This document shows, piece by piece, positions 8,951-25,787 of a stretch of 64,000 bases of DNA. Origin of the DNA: Deinococcales bacterium (GTDB lineage: Bacteria > Deinococcota > Deinococci > Deinococcales > JAAFIG01). Position numbers and translations under genes: made by a program. The notes beneath the pieces were generated by a model. It had not been told where the DNA came from. It made no database searches and worked only from the letters and a program-made list of their open reading frames with translations. Within the stretch, counting starts at the first letter, position 1, and the number at the start of each line of letters is the position of its first letter. The DNA is taken from positions 148,345-212,344 of the forward strand of contig JANXTZ010000044.1 of the NCBI GenBank assembly GCA_025352125.1, written 5' to 3'.

Positions 8951-9142
8951 GCGCCTATAGCTCAATGGTTAGAGCACCAATCTTCTTGACCATAAAACGT
9001 ACCTGTCTTGATCTTGATCCCAAACATGCACCTGATGGGCGGGATCGCTGACGGGCAAGGTCGCTTGTTGACCATAAAACGCACCTGACGGGCATGGTCG
9101 CTTCTAAATTGGCGCATACGGGTTCGAGTCCCGTTAGGCACA
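8951..9142 (+). tRNA. tRNA-Arg(TCT) gene interrupted by a 119-nt insert in the anticodon loop (possible pseudogene or intron-bearing gene)
   Basis: Hand fold after removing 8984-9102. Acceptor GCGCCTA/TAGGCAC has one C2-A71 mismatch. D arm GCTC-AATGGTTA-GAGC. Anticodon stem CCAAT/ATTGG with loop CT|TCTAA. Variable loop CGCAT. T arm ACGGG-TTCGAGT-CCCGT. Discriminator A. No encoded CCA. Confidence 0.7.
8984..9102 (+). repeat. Three copies of a ~37-nt hairpin repeat, one nested inside another, forming the tRNA insert
   Basis: Copy a is 8984-9005 plus 9050-9065 and is split by copy b, 9012-9049 (stem GATCCC/GGGATC). Copy c is 9066-9102 (stem GACCAT/ATGGTC). The consensus is TCTTG-stem-AAAACGCACCTGACGGGC-stem-CGCT. 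Confidence 0.8.
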
Positions 9143-9225: not shown

Positions 9226-9654
9226 ATGAAACGTGGCATTGCGCACATGGCTTTGGTCGTTCGTGATTACGATGAAGCCATCGCTTTTTACACGCAGAAA
9301 CTTGGCTTTGTGGTGCTCGAGGACACGTACCAGCCCGCCCAGGACAAACGCTGGGTGGTGATCGCGCCAGCCGAATCTTGCGGCGCGACCTTGTTGCTGG
9401 CTCGAGCCTCCACACCAGAGCAGGAAGCATTTATTGGTCATCAGGCTGGTGGTCGGGTTTTCTTGTTTCTCGCCACCGATGATTTTTGGCGCGATTACCG
9501 AGGGTTTCTTGCCAAGGGAATACAATTTGTGCGTGAACCCAAGACCGATGATTACGGCACGGTTGCGGTCTTCAAAGATTTGTACGGCAACCTTTGGGAT
9601 TTGCTCGAGTTTGGTATGGATCACCCAATGCGGAAAAGGTTGGAAATTTTTTAA
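9226..9654 (+). CDS. VOC-family (glyoxalase/bleomycin-resistance/dioxygenase fold) protein
   Basis: MKRGIAHMALVVRDYDEAIAFYTQKLGF... and C-terminal FKDLYGNLWDLLE are typical of the family. The ATG at 9226 is preferred over the TTG at 9181. Confidence 0.8.
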   Translation: MKRGIAHMALVVRDYDEAIAFYTQKLGFVVLEDTYQPAQDKRWVVIAPAESCGATLLLARASTPEQEAFIGHQAGGRVFLFLATDDFWRDYRGFLAKGIQFVREPKTDDYGTVAVFKDLYGNLWDLLEFGMDHPMRKRLEIF

Positions 9655-21946: not shown

Positions 21947-22405
21947 ATGGAAATCCGAGAGTACACCCGAAAAGACCGCCTGGCGTGTCTGCGCGTGCTC
22001 GATTCCAACATTCCAGGATTCTTCCCGCCCGAAACCCGAGATGATTTCACCGATTACCTCGACGAGATTGACAGCCCAGGTCACACGTTTTTTGTGCTCG
22101 AGAATCACAGCAAGCACCTGATCGCCTGTGGTGGAATTTACATTTTTCCAGGCGCTGTTCTTGCCAGCCTGAATTGGGGGATGGTCGCTCGAGCCTACCA
22201 CCGCACCAGAATTGGTGCTGCCCTGCTCGAGTACCGCCTGAACTGGCTGCGCGACACCGCGATTGTCCGCACCGTCATACTGAATGCTCCTCCAGCCGCA
22301 AGCGGATTTTTTGAACAATTTGGTTTTGTGTTTGAAACCAGTATTGAAAATCCTGAAGCTACCGGTCTTCAACGCCTCGAGATGCGGCTTCAATTGCGCC
22401 CATGA
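21947..22405 (+). CDS. GNAT family N-acetyltransferase
   Basis: Acetyl-CoA-binding pattern VARAYHRTRIGAALLE in a 152-aa protein. Confidence 0.8.
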   Translation: MEIREYTRKDRLACLRVLDSNIPGFFPPETRDDFTDYLDEIDSPGHTFFVLENHSKHLIACGGIYIFPGAVLASLNWGMVARAYHRTRIGAALLEYRLNWLRDTAIVRTVILNAPPAASGFFEQFGFVFETSIENPEATGLQRLEMRLQLRP

Positions 22406-22548
22406 CCTTAACCGCGCACCGCAAAATCATGCTTGAGCGAACACTCAAAATGCAGCTCGGGCATCCGCAACCCGAAAGTTTCGAGTCTTTGATTGCGTGG
22501 TTGAAAATGAAACTCGAGAAGCGGCTGAAAGCCAAGAAGAAAAAGTGA
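22402..22548 (+). CDS. Candidate 48-aa small basic protein (not in the ORF track)
   Basis: The ATG overlaps the GNAT stop codon as ATGA. Own translation: MTLTAHRKIMLERTLKMQLGHPQPESFESLIAWLKMKLEKRLKAKKKK. No homolog recognised. Confidence 0.3.
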   Translation: MTLTAHRKIMLERTLKMQLGHPQPESFESLIAWLKMKLEKRLKAKKKK

Positions 22549-22578: not shown

Positions 22579-23079
22579 ATGGCAATAACACCCGAGCAAA
22601 TGATTTTAGATGCCGCAAACACAAACGTTCGCCTCGAGTTTGTGCGTGGCATTCCGCTTTGGGAAGCCAGCCCAGTCGCGGGGCATCAACTCGAGATTTT
22701 CCGAATTCAGAACAGTATTAAGAGAAGTGATGACTCTCAAGCTTGTGCCTGTACCCACCTTTCAGACACGCTTTTTAAGTTTGGCGAGGGTTCACTCAAA
22801 CGCCCCGACATTGCGATTCTGTGCCAAGAATTAAAACCCGAACAACTGTACAGCGCCCTCGAGATCATCCCCGAAGCTGTGGTCGAAGTGATTTCCGAAG
22901 GTTACGAATACAAAGACCTCGAGATTGCGCCCCAGTTTTACCTGGGTTTGGGTGTGAAAGACGTTTTGATTCTCGAGCCACGGCTTAAAGTTGTGTATCA
23001 CCACCGAAAAGACAGCAAAACCCGACTCGAGTCACCTGTAAAATTGAGGCTCGAGTGTGGTTATGAAATTGAGGTTTAA
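22579..23079 (+). CDS. Uma2 family endonuclease (DUF820)
   Basis: EFVRGIPLWEASP..GHQ, PDIAIL, EVISEG...D..K...Y...GVKDVLILEP form the PD-(D/E)xK-like Uma2 pattern. Confidence 0.8.
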   Translation: MAITPEQMILDAANTNVRLEFVRGIPLWEASPVAGHQLEIFRIQNSIKRSDDSQACACTHLSDTLFKFGEGSLKRPDIAILCQELKPEQLYSALEIIPEAVVEVISEGYEYKDLEIAPQFYLGLGVKDVLILEPRLKVVYHHRKDSKTRLESPVKLRLECGYEIEV

Positions 23080-23510
23080 AATTTAATCAAGTGGCGCAAT
23101 CGTAAAAAATTTAAGAATTCGGCTGGAGTCAAAATAACAGCTTCTCCAAGCGTTTCCAATTCCAAAACACCAATGTTATCGCTGCTGACCAAAGCATTGG
23201 CTAGACCTTGTTCAACAATGGCGATTAAGAAATTGTCCTTTGGGTCTTTTGAGTCTCTCGAGTTTTGGTTGCCCCGCACGTACAAACCGTCAGAATGAAG
23301 TTGATTGACCAGCGCACCAATCCGATTGCGTTTCAAACGCTTTTTCAAACGTGGGTACGCGCAAACCAATTTGATTTCCTCGAGTAATTCAAGGTTGTAC
23401 AACACCACAAAAGCCCGATGTTCCCAAGCAAGAACAATTTGTCCACACAAACCATTGGGGTGAAGCATTGCACTGATAAACACGTTCGTATCCAGAACAA
23501 CTTTTAACAC
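23076..23510 (-). CDS. PIN-domain toxin (type II TA system)
   Basis: MLKVVLDTNVFISAML... N-terminus and later acidic residues are typical of the PIN family. It overlaps the upstream antitoxin gene by 1 nt. Confidence 0.8.
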   Translation of the reverse strand: MLKVVLDTNVFISAMLHPNGLCGQIVLAWEHRAFVVLYNLELLEEIKLVCAYPRLKKRLKRNRIGALVNQLHSDGLYVRGNQNSRDSKDPKDNFLIAIVEQGLANALVSSDNIGVLELETLGEAVILTPAEFLNFLRLRHLIKF

Positions 23511-23755
23511 TAGCCTCTAGCATCCCGCACAGCCCTTTGAGCCTCGAGTGCCAGCATCAACCCATCTTCTTCGGACAAATCATGATTAACAGCGTCATCC
23601 TCAAGAATTGCCCGAAAATTATCGGCTCGACGCTCGAGTTCGACGAGCGCTTGTTCAATCACATCGGCTTGCGAGGTTTTTAAACTGCTCTGAAGCTTTT
23701 CGATGCGTTTCAGTGCATCTTTTGACAATGCGATTTCCATAGTCAGATTGTACAT
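23510..23755 (-). CDS. Antitoxin partner of the PIN toxin (small helical/RHH-like protein)
   Basis: It lies immediately upstream of and overlaps the PIN gene. The start is uncertain (ATG at 23755 or 23740; the track gives GTG at 23782 inside repeat copy B). Confidence 0.6.
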   Translation of the reverse strand: MYNLTMEIALSKDALKRIEKLQSSLKTSQADVIEQALVELERRADNFRAILEDDAVNHDLSEEDGLMLALEAQRAVRDARG

Positions 23756-23772
23756 GATAAGCTCGGGTTTTG

Positions 23773-23826
23773 CTCGAGTCACCCGTAAAATTGAAACTCG
23801 AGTGCGGTTGTGAAATTGAGGTTTGA
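23773..23826 (+). repeat. Direct repeat copy B of the Uma2 3-prime end
   Basis: 48 of 54 nt are identical to 23026-23079 by hand alignment. It still encodes ..LESPVKLKLECGCEIEV*. Confidence 0.85.
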
Positions 23827-23876
23827 ATGCGAGATTTGAGCTTGTTGAAACCTTTCTGTTGTACTAAAATCATACC

Positions 23877-24074
23877 ATGAGTTCAATGCCTGAAATTAAA
23901 AAACTCAGTGTTTCAGATCGCCTTGATTTGCTCGAGAGTATTTGGGAGAGTTTGAGCCTTGAAGATGCTGTTCCAGAATTAACGCAAGCACAAAAACTCG
24001 AGATTGATCGGCGACTTACTGCCCATGACGCGAATCCAAGCCGAGGTCGTTCTTGGACTGAAGCCCGAGTGTGA
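23877..24074 (+). CDS. Putative addiction-module component (small antitoxin-like protein)
   Basis: LSVSDRLDLLESIWESL...ELTQAQKLEIDRRL is the pattern of the small 'putative addiction module component' family. The stop codon lies inside repeat copy C. Confidence 0.65.
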   Translation: MSSMPEIKKLSVSDRLDLLESIWESLSLEDAVPELTQAQKLEIDRRLTAHDANPSRGRSWTEARV

Positions 24075-24093
24075 TTGTGAGATCGAGGTTTGA
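24064..24093 (+). repeat. Direct repeat copy C (diverged, partial) of the Uma2 3-prime end
   Basis: 24 of 30 nt are identical to 23050-23079. It would encode ..ECDCEIEV*. Confidence 0.6.
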
Positions 24094-24097
24094 ATAA

Positions 24098-24451
24098 ATG
24101 ATTGAATTTATTAAAGTTGTTTTAATTATTGTATTTTTTTACACTTTTCTTATTTTAACTTTTGGGGTAATCATTAGATTAGTAGTATCGTACAGTCTTT
24201 TAAGTGATTGCATTCAAATAAAACTGTATGGGGATTCTTACCGAAAAATTTACTATGAAAATATCCAAGAAATTACGTATTGGAATCGAGAAACTGCACT
24301 AAAAAACTTTTGGTGTACGTTTGTTTTTAGGGAAAGAAATTCTGACCTTTTCCGATTTTTCAATCCCGTTGTTGTAGTTATGAATGGTAGTACATTTAAA
24401 GTTTTAATCACACCTCCAAATCCAAAAGAATTTGTCGAGAAAGTGAAATGA
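24098..24451 (+). CDS. Hypothetical membrane protein encoded by AT-rich DNA
   Basis: 117-aa ORF with an N-terminal hydrophobic helix pair. The DNA is strongly AT-rich and has no CTCGAG between 24002 and 24522. Confidence 0.5.
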   Translation: MIEFIKVVLIIVFFYTFLILTFGVIIRLVVSYSLLSDCIQIKLYGDSYRKIYYENIQEITYWNRETALKNFWCTFVFRERNSDLFRFFNPVVVVMNGSTFKVLITPPNPKEFVEKVK

Positions 24452-24545
24452 CTTAAAAGCCAAGTGAAATCAGATGAAATTCAACTCAATCCTGCATTGC
24501 GTCGATTGGCAAAATAAAGAATCTCGAGCTTCCCAAATTTCCAAT

Positions 24546-25787
24546 TCAATTGACAGTCTTGACCCGTTTGTTCACGTAATCCATCAACACATACTGCCCA
24601 ACATTGTGCGGCGTGGTGAAATACGCTTTTCCATGCGTCATCTCGGCGACTTTTTTCACGAACGCAATCAAATCGGGGTCCCTTGCCAGCATGAACGTGT
24701 TGATCTGAATGCCTGCACGTCTGCATTGCGCGACTTCACGAATGGTTTCACCCAGCACAAACGGGTCTAAACCCCAAGCGTTTTTGTAAATTCTGCCGTC
24801 GGGCAAGGTTAACGCCGAGGGTTTACCGTCGGTAATCATGATGATTTGCTTCATGTCTTTGTTCTCGCGTTTTAACAGTTGTTGCGCGAGTCTCAAGCCG
24901 CCTGCGGTGTTGGTGTGGTACGGACCAACTTGGCATTGCGCCAGCTTACCCAAGGGTATCTCTTCGGCAGAATCGTGAAACAACACAAACTTGATCGTGT
25001 CCCCCGCGTATTGCGTGCGAATCATGTGCGCCAGCGCCAACGCCACTTGCTTGGCAGGGGTGAACCTGTCCTCGCCGTACAAGATCATGCTGTGCGAGCA
25101 GTCCAGCATCACAATGGTTGCGGCGCTGCTTTTGTACTCGGCTTGCCGCACCACCAGATCGGATTCCTCGAGGTTCTCGAGTCCTTTTGCCATCGTGTTG
25201 GTCAGGGTTGCGCCAATGTCGAGGTTGAGGGTGTCACCAAATTCGTAATCTTTCAGGTCGCCCGTCATCTCGACACCCGAGGCGTATTCTTTGGTGTCGT
25301 GTCGTCCCATGCTCGACTTGCCCAGACCACCGAGCAGGTCGCGCAAGGTTTTGTAACCCAGGAAATCGATGCTTTTGTCGGTCAGTTGAAATTGCGCCTG
25401 CCCTGGGTCGCCCGCGCCGCCTTGACCGCTGGCTTCGCTGGGTTGCGGGTCGTCAACGCGAATGTAACCCTCGTCTTTCATGCGTTGAATCATCTTGGAA
25501 ATTTCCTGGGAAAGGCGTGTTTTGTCAAAATCTTTGGTACTTTGCGCCTCTTTGAGCATGTCTTCAGGAATTAGGTCGCGTTCCATTAAAGCCTGCAAGA
25601 TCGCCTCGCGCAACTCGTCCATGCTCTGCCCAGAGTTGGGGTCTGGGTCGTAAGGATTGTTGAACGCCGACCCAATGATTGAATCGCGGATCATTTCCAT
25701 GATGCTCGAGGTGTCAATGTCGTCTAAGGTGGATTCGTATTTGGAATAACGGGTCGAGCGGGTTGTGGTTTGCATAAAAGACCTCAC
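24546..25787 (-). CDS. VWA-domain protein (partner of the upstream AAA+ ATPase)
   Basis: MIDAS motif VMLDCSHSM, later ITDGKPS. Confidence 0.8.

Follow-up and report, generated by a model that had tools for sequence, protein, structure and literature searches.

Genes and elements of the locus

The locus lies in a 64-kb stretch of DNA from an uncultured member of the Deinococcales, which we call the window. Its conserved left flank (21947..22548) consists of a GNAT acetyltransferase gene (21947-22405, + strand; Pfam Acetyltransf_1) and an ORF of 48 aa (22402-22548, +), and is syntenic in L001, L006, L007, L073, L075 and L086, our designations for the same locus in related assemblies. Next comes a Uma2-family gene (22579..23079, +), the upstream copy or U1 in what follows, whose 166-aa product ends in LECGYEIEV and matches PF05685 at 50.7 bits, against a Pfam gathering cut-off of 27. 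The product also matches weakly the PADLOC candidate defence family PDC-S03. Its orthologues share 83-94% identity, and no exact match to the protein is on record. The orthologues share a conserved C-terminus (LECGCEIEV), variation being found downstream of the stop codon, and the tail EIEV before the stop is particular to this orthologue group. In the window protein, a tyrosine stands at the nearly invariant Cys162 of the conserved C-terminal ECGC motif; nuclease activity is putative.

The Uma2 stop codon overlaps that of a PIN toxin gene on the opposite strand (23076..23510, -; PIN_3 at 52.6 bits, TIGR00305 at 69.3 bits). An 81-aa ORF with a weak ribbon-helix-helix (RHH_1) match (23510..23755, -) lies upstream of the toxin gene and overlaps its start, which is the layout of a type II toxin-antitoxin (TA) pair of the VapC-like kind. 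The upstream region of this PIN-TA operon (23756..23772) runs up to a deletion joint at 23771/23772. Further downstream lies an Unstab_antitox/TIGR02574 antitoxin gene (23877..24074, +), identified by both Pfam (model positions 1-54 of 54) and NCBIfam, with altered last codons (..EARV before the stop). Although this antitoxin is full length, no ParE toxin was found in the window by tblastn; the antitoxin is thus an orphan whose ParE has been lost. It is followed by an AT-rich variable cassette (24094..24515, +; 30% GC, no CTCGAG) carrying ORF117 (24098-24451), the product of which has a hydrophobic N-terminus. The right boundary is formed by a conserved element, here called R (24516..24545), just downstream of the stop codon of a VWA-domain gene (24546..25787, -). 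Homology of the window with all relatives resumes at 24518-24520, within R, which contains one CTCGAG in the window and two in the relatives. The VWA gene is highly conserved, at 99% amino-acid identity, and is a possible homologous anchor.

Three copies of the Uma2 gene end

The end of the Uma2 gene is found three times at this locus. Copy A (23026-23079, +), the true 3' terminus of the gene, spans 54 nt: CTCGAG, 18 nt, a second CTCGAG and a 24-nt tail. Copy B (23773-23826, +) is identical to A at 48/54 positions, translates as LESPVKLKLECGCEIEV followed by a stop, and continues into the antitoxin region as orthologous loci do. Copy C (24064-24093, +), in which the antitoxin gene runs into a 3' tail of Uma2, matches A at 24/30 positions, B at 25/30 and the consensus of the 30-nt core that the copies share, CTCGAGTGYGGTTGYGAAATTGAGGTTTRA, at 26/30. 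Of the five positions at which C and B differ, three are silent in the Uma2 reading frame, which is what an origin of C in a working allele predicts. All copies are in direct orientation, far above chance, and confined to one place in 64 kb. No shuffle of the window matched the core, for which the best chance match in 8 kb is usually 17-19/30; one further place in 64 kb reaches 21/30, and no further copy was found in the window or at another of the loci examined.

The first-pass annotation of this DNA had described such an array, and its description holds: three direct copies with the above coordinates and identities, the PIN toxin and its antitoxin filling the interval between A and B, a small addiction-module gene between B and C whose stop lies inside C, and an AT-rich ORF, of 117 aa, after C. 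The same arrangement occurs in the independent assemblies L073 and L074, so the array is not an assembly artefact. The annotation had further pointed to an inverted 12-mer (23014-23025 and 23763-23774), the second half of which lies mostly in the PIN-TA upstream region, as the hint of a rearrangement breakpoint. The match is indeed exact, but about 20 inverted 12-mer pairs of this kind within 1 kb of each other occur in the window, and the pair is not conserved in L007, L075 and L088 despite the same junction; we therefore rejected it as a breakpoint.

The locus in related assemblies

We compared the same locus from about 10 related uncultured Deinococcales assemblies; informative loci came from a genome scan and from homologue look-ups of Uma2, ORF117 and PIN, while a metagenome scan with the single Uma2 protein returned four distant loci, none of them orthologous. 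The comparison bears out both the strain-to-strain variation expected at this locus and the role of the repeats as markers of module boundaries.

For copy B, the relatives supply the missing gene. A complete Uma2 gene stands at the position of B, after PIN-TA, in L006, L008 and L071, and is flanked on its left by the DNA that also lies left of copy B; L008 and L071 agree with the window on the right as well. Homology with L071, where the whole Uma2 gene comes next, extends to window position 23771 (L071 sequence there, CTCGGTTTTCGA), and window positions 23772-24057 align to the Uma2 end and downstream DNA of L001, L008, L071 and L072. The extent of the distal copy thus ranges from the whole gene in these three loci, through about 126 nt in L077 and L078, to 54 nt in the window, L007, L075 and L088, the last three of which have the same copy B joint as the window. 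In L077 and L078 the 3' relic after PIN-TA carries a 2-nt frameshift and has a different joint (GATGTG/AAGA); downstream follow the antitoxin, a C-type core and then ORF139. In L001 and L072, Uma2 is followed directly by the antitoxin, with a 747-bp indel relative to the window, and both A and B align to the single Uma2 end.

The upstream Uma2 has left a reciprocal relic in two assemblies. In L008 and L071, the relic upstream of PIN-TA comprises the Uma2 promoter and first codons (53 nt; none of 300 shuffles matched as well). The L071 relic also has a Uma2 3' piece (8/2000 shuffles as good); the corresponding 3' part of the L008 relic was discarded as insignificant on its own (1383/2000 shuffles). 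In L006, PIN-TA lies between the 48-aa ORF and Uma2, and there is no core at the outer, PIN-side junction. In L086, the string 'AGGTTTAA' was considered as an 8-nt Uma2 remnant and set aside because it is very short and could equally belong to the 3' flank of PIN.

Copy C calls for a modified account. Three relatives (L008, L075 and L088) carry the antitoxin with an intact ParE gene, and there the antitoxin has its natural end, ..EARERL(A/V)RRS before the stop. In the window, L001 and L077, ParE is absent, the antitoxin gene ends in a Uma2-like tail, and differing AT-rich ORFs follow; the joints in L001 and L077 are homologous to that of copy C. Copy C is thus a short Uma2 tail at the joint of a ParE replacement. 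Consequently, the alternative offered in the first-pass annotation, which derived B and C from tandem Uma2 paralogs since deleted, stands for B, whereas C is not a whole gene decayed in place.

The remaining modules vary likewise. The AT-rich cassette is swapped for unrelated AT-rich ORFs in L001, L006, L007 and L008, and the orthologue of ORF117 in L075 and L077 is ORF139. L075 has four direct cores. Its copies 2 and 3 (30 nt) are hybrids in which a CTCGAG common to both partners links the core to R or to an end resembling R. The PIN gene of L075 is internally deleted with the antitoxin retained. In L008, the ORF X63 matches Pfam Imm17 at 27.3 bits (cut-off 25). The ORF X88 has a match to MafI below threshold. 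L086 is derivable from a window-like array by deletion from one CTCGAG to another.

The phenomenon appears to be confined to this locus in this clade. In about 60 Uma2 loci of other lineages, the last 30 nt of the gene recur nearby only where whole paralogues stand in tandem (L021 and L039), L056 being a candidate recurrence at 22/30. PIN-TA relatives of at least 86% identity occur at the window's locus only. We also considered PIN-TA as a mobile cassette and rejected this, as relatives of 77% identity sit after a transketolase gene without Uma2 or the core.

Integration, selection or relics

Duplicated gene ends that bracket small modules invite the interpretation that a dedicated system, comparable to an integron or to an integrase island at a tRNA end, inserts small cassettes at a site of 30-54 bp at the Uma2 end and leaves a copy of the site each time. 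Direct-orientation cores at every module boundary (three in the window, four in L075), the single copy at the empty site of L001 and L072, and the foreign-looking AT-rich ORFs that begin right after the core in the window, L006, L007, L075, L077 and L086 would all agree with this, but homologous deletion between two Uma2 copies would produce the empty site just as well. Against such a system stand the full Uma2 gene or its relic of about 126 nt at the position of B in five assemblies, the 5' Uma2 relic upstream of PIN-TA in L008 and L071, and the coreless outer junction of L006. In addition, the left edges of the repeats vary, and the cassettes occur on both strands, with PIN-TA, X88, X151 and X63 all opposite to Uma2. 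No recombinase family was found in the Pfam gene lists within about 6-10 kb of the locus (L001, L073 and L079), in line with the first-pass annotation, which had reported no integrase; the window's intervals contain nothing but the PIN toxin and antitoxin (A to B) and the antitoxin (B to C), and no tRNA, tmRNA or Rfam family was found at the locus. The core is absent from the rest of the window and from the other loci examined, and an attC-like fold was not found: single-strand DNA folds of B (z from +0.28 to -0.19) and C (z from +0.05 to +0.50) are close to those of shuffles, and neither is significant, while copy A folds (z of -2.4) only through its two CTCGAG. We consider site-specific integration very unlikely. 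The more particular proposal of the first-pass annotation, that cassettes integrated serially and each regenerated a surrogate gene end, is contradicted by the complete Uma2 genes at B in L006, L008 and L071, by the relics of L077 and L078, by the varying relic lengths (about 20-30, 54 and about 126 nt) and by the PIN-TA that lies upstream of Uma2 without flanking repeats.

Alternatively, B and C might not be neutral scars but functional elements maintained by selection: a terminator or insulator, a stretch of the PIN-TA promoter, or the coding sequence of an 18-aa peptide, for instance. The core of B is 29/30 identical between the window and L007, the single change being synonymous in the old Uma2 frame, whereas the first 24 nt of B agree at 18/24. 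This difference could hint at constraint, although working copies show the same pattern. A weak promoter-like -35 element of the PIN-TA operon also falls within B. However, a TAA immediately upstream of B closes the frame, no terminator-like or otherwise stable structure was found in B or C, B has eroded freely over its first half in L007, L075 and L088, and L086 and L006 do without B altogether. Moreover, the conservation pattern of B is that of the working gene, as expected if relics are sampled from functional alleles. Retention by selection is likewise very unlikely.

The arrangements are best explained if the region between Uma2 and the convergent VWA gene is a hypervariable islet in which duplications or displacements were followed by deletions, and we regard the repeats as probably the scars of these events. 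Copies B and C are truncated leftovers of the 3' ends of once-complete Uma2 genes and not target sites of a recombinase, and the islet gathers TA pairs, orphan antitoxins and AT-rich small genes, partly of the immunity type. Among the observations that count against the scar reading are the four cores of L075, which would need many former copies if their history were purely one of decayed whole genes, and the constant position of the cores at module boundaries, which an att-type system would predict likewise.

From the arrangements, joints and relics observed, we infer the following order of events. The simplest ancestor would have carried Uma2, PIN-TA on the opposite strand, a second Uma2 (U2), the Unstab antitoxin, ParE, R and VWA; both Uma2 copies intact around PIN-TA were not found in any recovered genome, and this tandem ancestor is therefore a reconstruction. 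Different parts would then have been lost in each lineage. In the window, L007, L075 and L088, a deletion with one common joint would have removed the second Uma2 from the promoter onwards and spared only its last 54 nt; an independent deletion in L077 and L078 would have left about 126 nt. The first Uma2 may have been gutted in L008 and L071 and cleanly lost in L006, and L086 would retain neither copy beyond a core-like tail. In L001 and L072, the two copies presumably collapsed to one with loss of PIN-TA.

Copy C would have arisen by recombination between a locus of the type 'antitoxin, ParE' and DNA that carried a Uma2 end, an AT-rich cassette and VWA. The right side of this exchange would be anchored in VWA and R, and the left side would be an illegitimate joining in the last codons of the antitoxin gene, which already resembled the Uma2 end (C[C/T]CGAG ... 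TTGYGA), so that ParE gave way to the incoming DNA and about 13-24 nt of Uma2 tail were left behind. The near-identical 30-nt cores could thereafter have served as passive patches of short homology for the swapping, stacking and deletion of modules. The pathway would be homologous together with homology-facilitated illegitimate recombination, plausibly after natural transformation.

The CTCGAG palindrome

A more unusual side observation concerns CTCGAG itself, which is 28-fold over-represented and spells 188/244 of the Leu-Glu dipeptides. No literature was found on CTCGAG as an iterated palindrome in Deinococcales.

Several joints of the islet lie at this palindrome, raising the possibility that it acts as a cut-and-join point, either by cleavage of the XhoI type and re-ligation or by a palindrome-specific recombination activity, with the paired CTCGAG of the Uma2 end and of R as preferred boundaries. 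The left edge of B, copy C of the window, hybrids 2 and 3 of L075 and the L086 fusion have joints exactly at CTCGAG or a near-copy (C[C/T]CGAG), and one of the two CTCGAG of R is lost in the window and L088. As a control, none of 23 ordinary flank indels was bounded by CTCGAG, and the palindrome was therefore rejected as a general mediator of indels. The same result makes the CTCGAG joints a distinct class, special to the islet, that microhomology alone does not explain. The 28-fold excess would fit such an activity as well. On the other hand, CTCGAG is simply the 6-mer that native sequences are most likely to have in common, and joining guided by microhomology would therefore give the same pattern. 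Other islet joints lie away from it (GTG at the L077 relic, AGAAC at the PIN deletion of L075), the C joint of L001 and L077 cannot be placed since CTCGAG and TTGYGA are common to both parents, and no enzyme has been identified for such joining. CTCGAG-directed joining therefore seems improbable to us, if less so than an integration system or selection. Its boldest form is a long shot: an integrase-free capture in which the paired CTCGAG of Uma2 end and R are real cut-and-join points of a palindrome-specific activity. This activity could conceivably be an XhoI-like system or the adjacent Uma2 itself, as a nuclease of the PD-(D/E)XK type; the excess would be its footprint, and the cores would be functional cassette boundaries rather than passive scars. 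We favor the scar reading, with CTCGAG presumably acting as microhomology.

Comparison with known systems

The closest known analogues are the orphan arrays of Rhs, CDI and T6SS effector-immunity loci. These arrays arise by displacement, which has been attributed to homology-facilitated illegitimate recombination (Kirchberger et al. 2017, PMC5361080, and the literature on Rhs C-terminal displacement cited there). As in those arrays, a conserved gene is followed by stacked modules, direct-orientation fragments of the conserved gene precede displaced modules (B and C of the window, copies 2-4 of L075, B and C of L077), protective genes outlive toxins (the orphan Unstab antitoxin of the window, the orphan PIN antitoxin of L075, the Imm17 gene of L008), no integrase is involved, and strains differ module by module. 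In contrast, Uma2 is not a polymorphic toxin and its C-terminus is conserved rather than exchanged, what the fragments retain is the very 3' end of the gene (about 20-30 to 126 nt) and not a core plus toxin tip, and the cargo consists of type II TA pairs and AT-rich ORFs. In both cases the mechanism is inferred.

Homology-facilitated illegitimate recombination is known from bacteria capable of natural transformation (de Vries & Wackernagel 2002, Prudhomme et al. 2002, Meier & Wackernagel 2003, as cited in PMC5361080). The islet resembles it in having one long anchor (VWA/R, with the 99% amino-acid identity of the VWA gene), in its other joints at short microhomology (CTCGAG, TTGYGA, GTG) and in the deletion of recipient DNA (ParE), and differs from the published cases in that the Uma2 islet presents the products only. 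For these uncultured Deinococcales, transformation is assumed from the biology of their relatives.

Integrase islands at tRNA and tmRNA 3' ends share with the islet the direct repeats of a gene end that bracket inserted DNA, the intact gene, and an empty site in relatives. Unlike them, the islet has no integrase, repeats of variable length and a protein-coding target, and relatives of the window have a whole second gene at the position of 'attR'. Integron attC arrays likewise consist of small modules, TA pairs among them, with a recurring element between, but at the Uma2 islet there is no IntI nearby, the element lacks inverted repeats and a fold of the attC type, and the cassettes lie on both strands with their own promoters. 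As for the palindrome, HIP1 (GCGATCGC) is the highly iterated palindrome of cyanobacteria. CTCGAG resembles it as one short GC-rich palindrome that is over-represented genome-wide, genes included, by more than an order of magnitude; the sequence differs, and so does the phylum, here that of the Deinococcales.

Implications

The islet shows, in a clean natural case, how a small hotspot on the chromosome takes shape, with modules stacked, displaced and trimmed, fragments of a flanking gene left behind as scars that later become patches of short homology, and antitoxin or immunity genes outlasting the toxins. It extends the 'orphan array' pattern of Rhs, CDI and T6SS loci to a Uma2/TA islet of uncultured Deinococcales. 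It also cautions that duplicated gene ends should not be taken as att sites without comparative data. Highly iterated in this clade and found at several rearrangement joints, CTCGAG offers a tractable system for the role of a palindrome, which may be of wider interest. If integrase-free capture at CTCGAG were true, the Uma2-end cores would be functional cassette boundaries.

Results

All three direct copies of the Uma2 3′ end reported in the first-pass annotation were confirmed. Copy A (23026-23079, + strand) is the 3′ end of a 166-aa Uma2-family ORF (PF05685), copy B (23773-23826, +) is identical to it at 48/54 positions, and copy C (24064-24093, +) matches A at 24/30, B at 25/30 and the consensus of the 30-nt core of the repeats at 26/30. 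This core has no further match in the 64-kb window, where the next-best site is one other place at 21/30, and none arises from shuffles of the window; the chance level for the best match is 17-19/30 (8 kb of related loci). The gene content also agrees with the earlier description. The interval from A to B is occupied by a PIN_3/TIGR00305 toxin gene (23076-23510, −) with its 81-aa antitoxin (23510-23755, −), together PIN-TA. That from B to C contains a full-length Unstab_antitox/TIGR02574 gene (23877-24074, +) whose stop codon falls within C, and a 117-aa ORF (X117) follows 3′ of C in a segment of 30% GC that has no CTCGAG. Since the arrangement recurs at L073 and L074, from independent assemblies of essentially one strain, it is no assembly artefact.

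Uma2 (22579-23079) has a weak match (E 5.6e-12) to PDC-S03, a candidate defence family in PADLOC, and the Uma2 family is expanded in Thermus (PMC1274311). Codon 162 of the window's working Uma2 (23062-23064) is Tyr (TAT) where at least 90% of 22 aligned homologues have Cys (LECG-C-EIEV); the Cys codon is retained in the non-coding relic B. Compared with L008, L071 and L007, the window has lost 4 nt at 23076-23100, which changes the PIN C-terminus from ..RLRQLID* to ..RLRHLIKF*, so that the PIN stop overlaps the Uma2 stop.

The nearest genomes are uncultured Deinococcales MAGs, and we compared the orthologous locus from about 10 assemblies (L numbers), with flanks 84-93% identical to the window. 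The locus is bordered by a GNAT gene and a 48-aa ORF on the left and by a VWA-domain gene on the right. Writing U for a complete Uma2, P and A for the PIN toxin and antitoxin (opposite strand), S for the Unstab antitoxin, E for ParE, R for a conserved element just 3′ of the VWA stop, X for AT-rich ORFs and V for VWA, the window, L073 and L074 read U-[P A]-B(54)-S-C-X117-R-V, L007 reads U-[P A]-B(54)-X64-R-V, and L088 reads U-[P A]-B(54)-S-E-R-X63. L077 and L078 have [P A]-relic(~126 nt)-S-C-X139-R-V, L006 has 48aa-[P A]-U-X151-R-V, L008 and L071 have Uma2 5′ relic-[P A]-U-S-E-R-X63-R-V, L001 and L072 have U-S-(C-X88-R-V), and L086 has 48aa-[P A]-CTCGAG+core tail-X88-R-V. L075 and L076 read U-S-E-R′+core-[TetR, FAD monooxygenase]-R′-like+core-[P stub, A]-B(54)-X139.

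These comparisons argue strongly that copy B is what remains of a second Uma2 gene, a deleted tandem copy, which the first-pass annotation had offered as its alternative. Window positions 23772-24057 align with the Uma2 end and downstream antitoxin region of L001, L008, L071 and L072, and copy A aligns with the same Uma2 end; the window thus differs from L001/L072 by a 747-bp indel, consisting of PIN-TA and one 54-nt copy, which alone would fit either insertion or deletion. A complete Uma2 follows PIN-TA in L006, L008 and L071, where the antitoxin upstream region is the same as the window's, and homology between the window and L071 extends to 23771, 1 base short of copy B. L077 and L078 keep at B's position a Uma2 relic of about 126 nt that is frameshifted by 2 nt and has another joint (GATGTG|AAGA..), the kind of longer degraded sequence that the annotation had named as speaking against cassette integration. 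The reciprocal relic stands 5′ of PIN-TA in L008 and L071, where the promoter and initial codons of Uma2 survive (53 aligned nt; 0/300 shuffles as good), and L071 additionally has a Uma2 3′-end piece upstream of PIN-TA (8/2000 shuffles). The window's 54-nt joint is common to L007, L075 and L088, indicating one old event, inherited or spread by ordinary recombination, and not a site-specific reaction that recurs.

The simplest common ancestor would be U-[P A]-U, from which lineages would have lost one copy or the other; recombination between both copies would remove PIN-TA together with one Uma2. No genome among the ~10 assemblies has both copies intact around PIN-TA, so the ancestor is a reconstruction. 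Complete tandem Uma2 paralogues are present in other Deinococcales contigs (L021 1981-3005 and L039 3-753, one from the MAG of L006), so tandem copies do arise in this group.

The inverted 12-mer flanking A and B, previously taken to hint at a rearrangement, is exact, but it is a coincidence: some 20 pairs of exact inverted 12-mers no more than 1 kb apart exist in the window, and the pairing is missing in L007, L075 and L088 although they share the joint. On the B side the sequence belongs to the antitoxin gene's own upstream DNA, where L071 reads CTCGGTTTTCGA.

Serial integration of small cassettes at the Uma2 3′ end, the reading first proposed, is not supported, given the whole Uma2 or longer relics at B's position in relatives, the lack of recombinase families in gene lists covering ~6-10 kb around the locus (L001, L073, L079), and folds of B and C no better than those of shuffles; copy A folds solely through its two CTCGAG. 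The window contains neither tRNA nor tmRNA genes, the region gave no Rfam match, and cassettes lie on both strands. PIN-TA relatives of at least 86% identity occur at this locus only, and 77% relatives elsewhere stand without Uma2 and without cores. Tandem whole paralogues excepted, the Uma2 end is not repeated downstream at the ~60 Uma2 loci compared from other lineages. Two core-like matches at 22/30 may be chance: L056 9132-9161, located ~650 nt 3′ of a Pyrinomonadaceae Uma2 at a locus where tblastn detects no second copy, and L008 6966-6995, in the sequence coding for the N-terminal part of a 1157-aa regulator.

Copy C is a tail of Uma2 and marks the joint at which other DNA took the place of ParE. 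In L008, L075 and L088 the antitoxin has its natural end ..EARERL(A/V)RRS*, which overlaps the intact gene of a 97-aa ParE, and the R element comes next. ParE is lost in the window, L001 and L077, where the antitoxin ends early (..EARV*, ..EARERLRN*, ..EAREGL*) and the sequence switches to a Uma2 tail (..GAAATTGAGGTTTRA), with an AT-rich ORF behind it (X117/X139 in the window and L077, X88 in L001). For C, the earlier suggestion of a deleted-paralogue relic is supported in modified form, C being a short tail and not a whole gene decayed in place. Likeness to the Uma2 end is already present in the natural antitoxin end (C[C/T]CGAG, then TTG[C/T]GA 5-6 nt on), so the crossover falls within a stretch that was similar beforehand and is not placeable to the base; more Uma2 sequence is kept in the window (TGTGATTG..) than in L001/L077 (AA[C/G]GGTTG..). 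The EIEV* tail is confined to this Uma2 orthologue group, and of the 5 positions at which C and B differ, 3 are synonymous when read in the frame of Uma2, which fits a working Uma2 allele of another strain as the source. In L006, L007 and L075 an AT-rich ORF stands directly behind the Uma2 end or B, the kind of donor arrangement needed for C.

The islet, the variable stretch between Uma2 and the VWA gene, has native CTCGAG density in PIN-TA, S(-E) and the L075 TetR/monooxygenase block; X segments have 30-34% GC and 0-1 CTCGAG. X63 (L008 9141-9332, −; also L088) matches the Pfam immunity protein Imm17 (27.3 bits, cut-off 25), X88 (L001 10847-11113, −) has a sub-threshold MafI immunity match, and ORF117 gives a weak bacterial PH-domain hint and nothing else. 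X63 and X88 suggest that orphan immunity genes, and not antitoxins alone, accumulate in the islet, and the window's S and L075's A stand without their toxins. In L075 (5612-5660) the PIN gene is cut internally to a ~40-nt stub (joint AGAAC) and the antitoxin gene is intact. Metagenome contigs L003 and L004 show the same succession of Uma2, Unstab antitoxin and ParE at a distant Uma2 (45% identical), and the linkage may be older than this clade.

Discussion

The locus displays alternative arrangements, relics of varied length, joints both shared and independent, and the replacement of ParE. Uma2-led modules would have been duplicated or displaced, with deletions following, and new DNA would enter by homologous recombination in the conserved flanks, its other end being joined at microhomology. 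A published proposal explains T6SS orphan immunity arrays, and the strings of orphan 3′ regions found at Rhs loci, in the same way (PMC5361080). As in those arrays, conserved-gene fragments lie ahead of displaced modules, protective genes survive, and there is no integrase. One defining feature is absent, however: Uma2 is no polymorphic toxin with a swapped C-terminus, and we therefore file the islet as probably working like those arrays, outside their toxin families.

CTCGAG occurs 436 times in the window against ~16 expected (~28-fold excess, 6.8 per kb). It spells 188/244 Leu-Glu dipeptides in long ORFs, where codon usage predicts ~11%, and is enriched in the other two frames too. Among the loci counted (L001, L006-L008, L012, L020, L082, L083), density is 5-9 per kb in related Deinococcales loci, 4.9 at a Meiothermus locus and 1.6 at a Trueperaceae locus. 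CTCGAG is a highly iterated palindrome like HIP1 of cyanobacteria; our literature search found no paper describing CTCGAG as one.

Several module joints of the islet fall on CTCGAG or something close to it. The left edge of B is a joint at CTCGAG, and that of the window's C lies at the near-copy CCCGAG. Two hybrid elements in L075 have an R or R-like gene end continued by the Uma2 core tail, the R part being 30/30 identical to L001's R through the second CTCGAG, and the L086 fusion is derivable from a window-like array by CTCGAG-to-CTCGAG deletion. One of the two CTCGAG of R is likewise lost in the window and L088. Joints away from CTCGAG are those of the relic in L077 and of the deletion inside the L075 PIN gene. 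As a control, 0/23 indels of at least 8 nt in ~25 kb of flank alignments are bounded by CTCGAG. Our reading is that CTCGAG supplies the microhomology most readily shared by unrelated native sequences, and we keep as a rival that it has a more specific role at joints. The X63 cassette of L008 is flanked by a ~39-nt direct R-element repeat (~9062-9100 and 9370-9410, ~29/39 identical; CTCGAGCCTC, 9-10 nt, CTCGAGACT), a second islet insert bracketed by boundary-element copies with paired CTCGAG. Of the leads from this locus, the CTCGAG excess and the occurrence of CTCGAG at joints most deserve pursuit.
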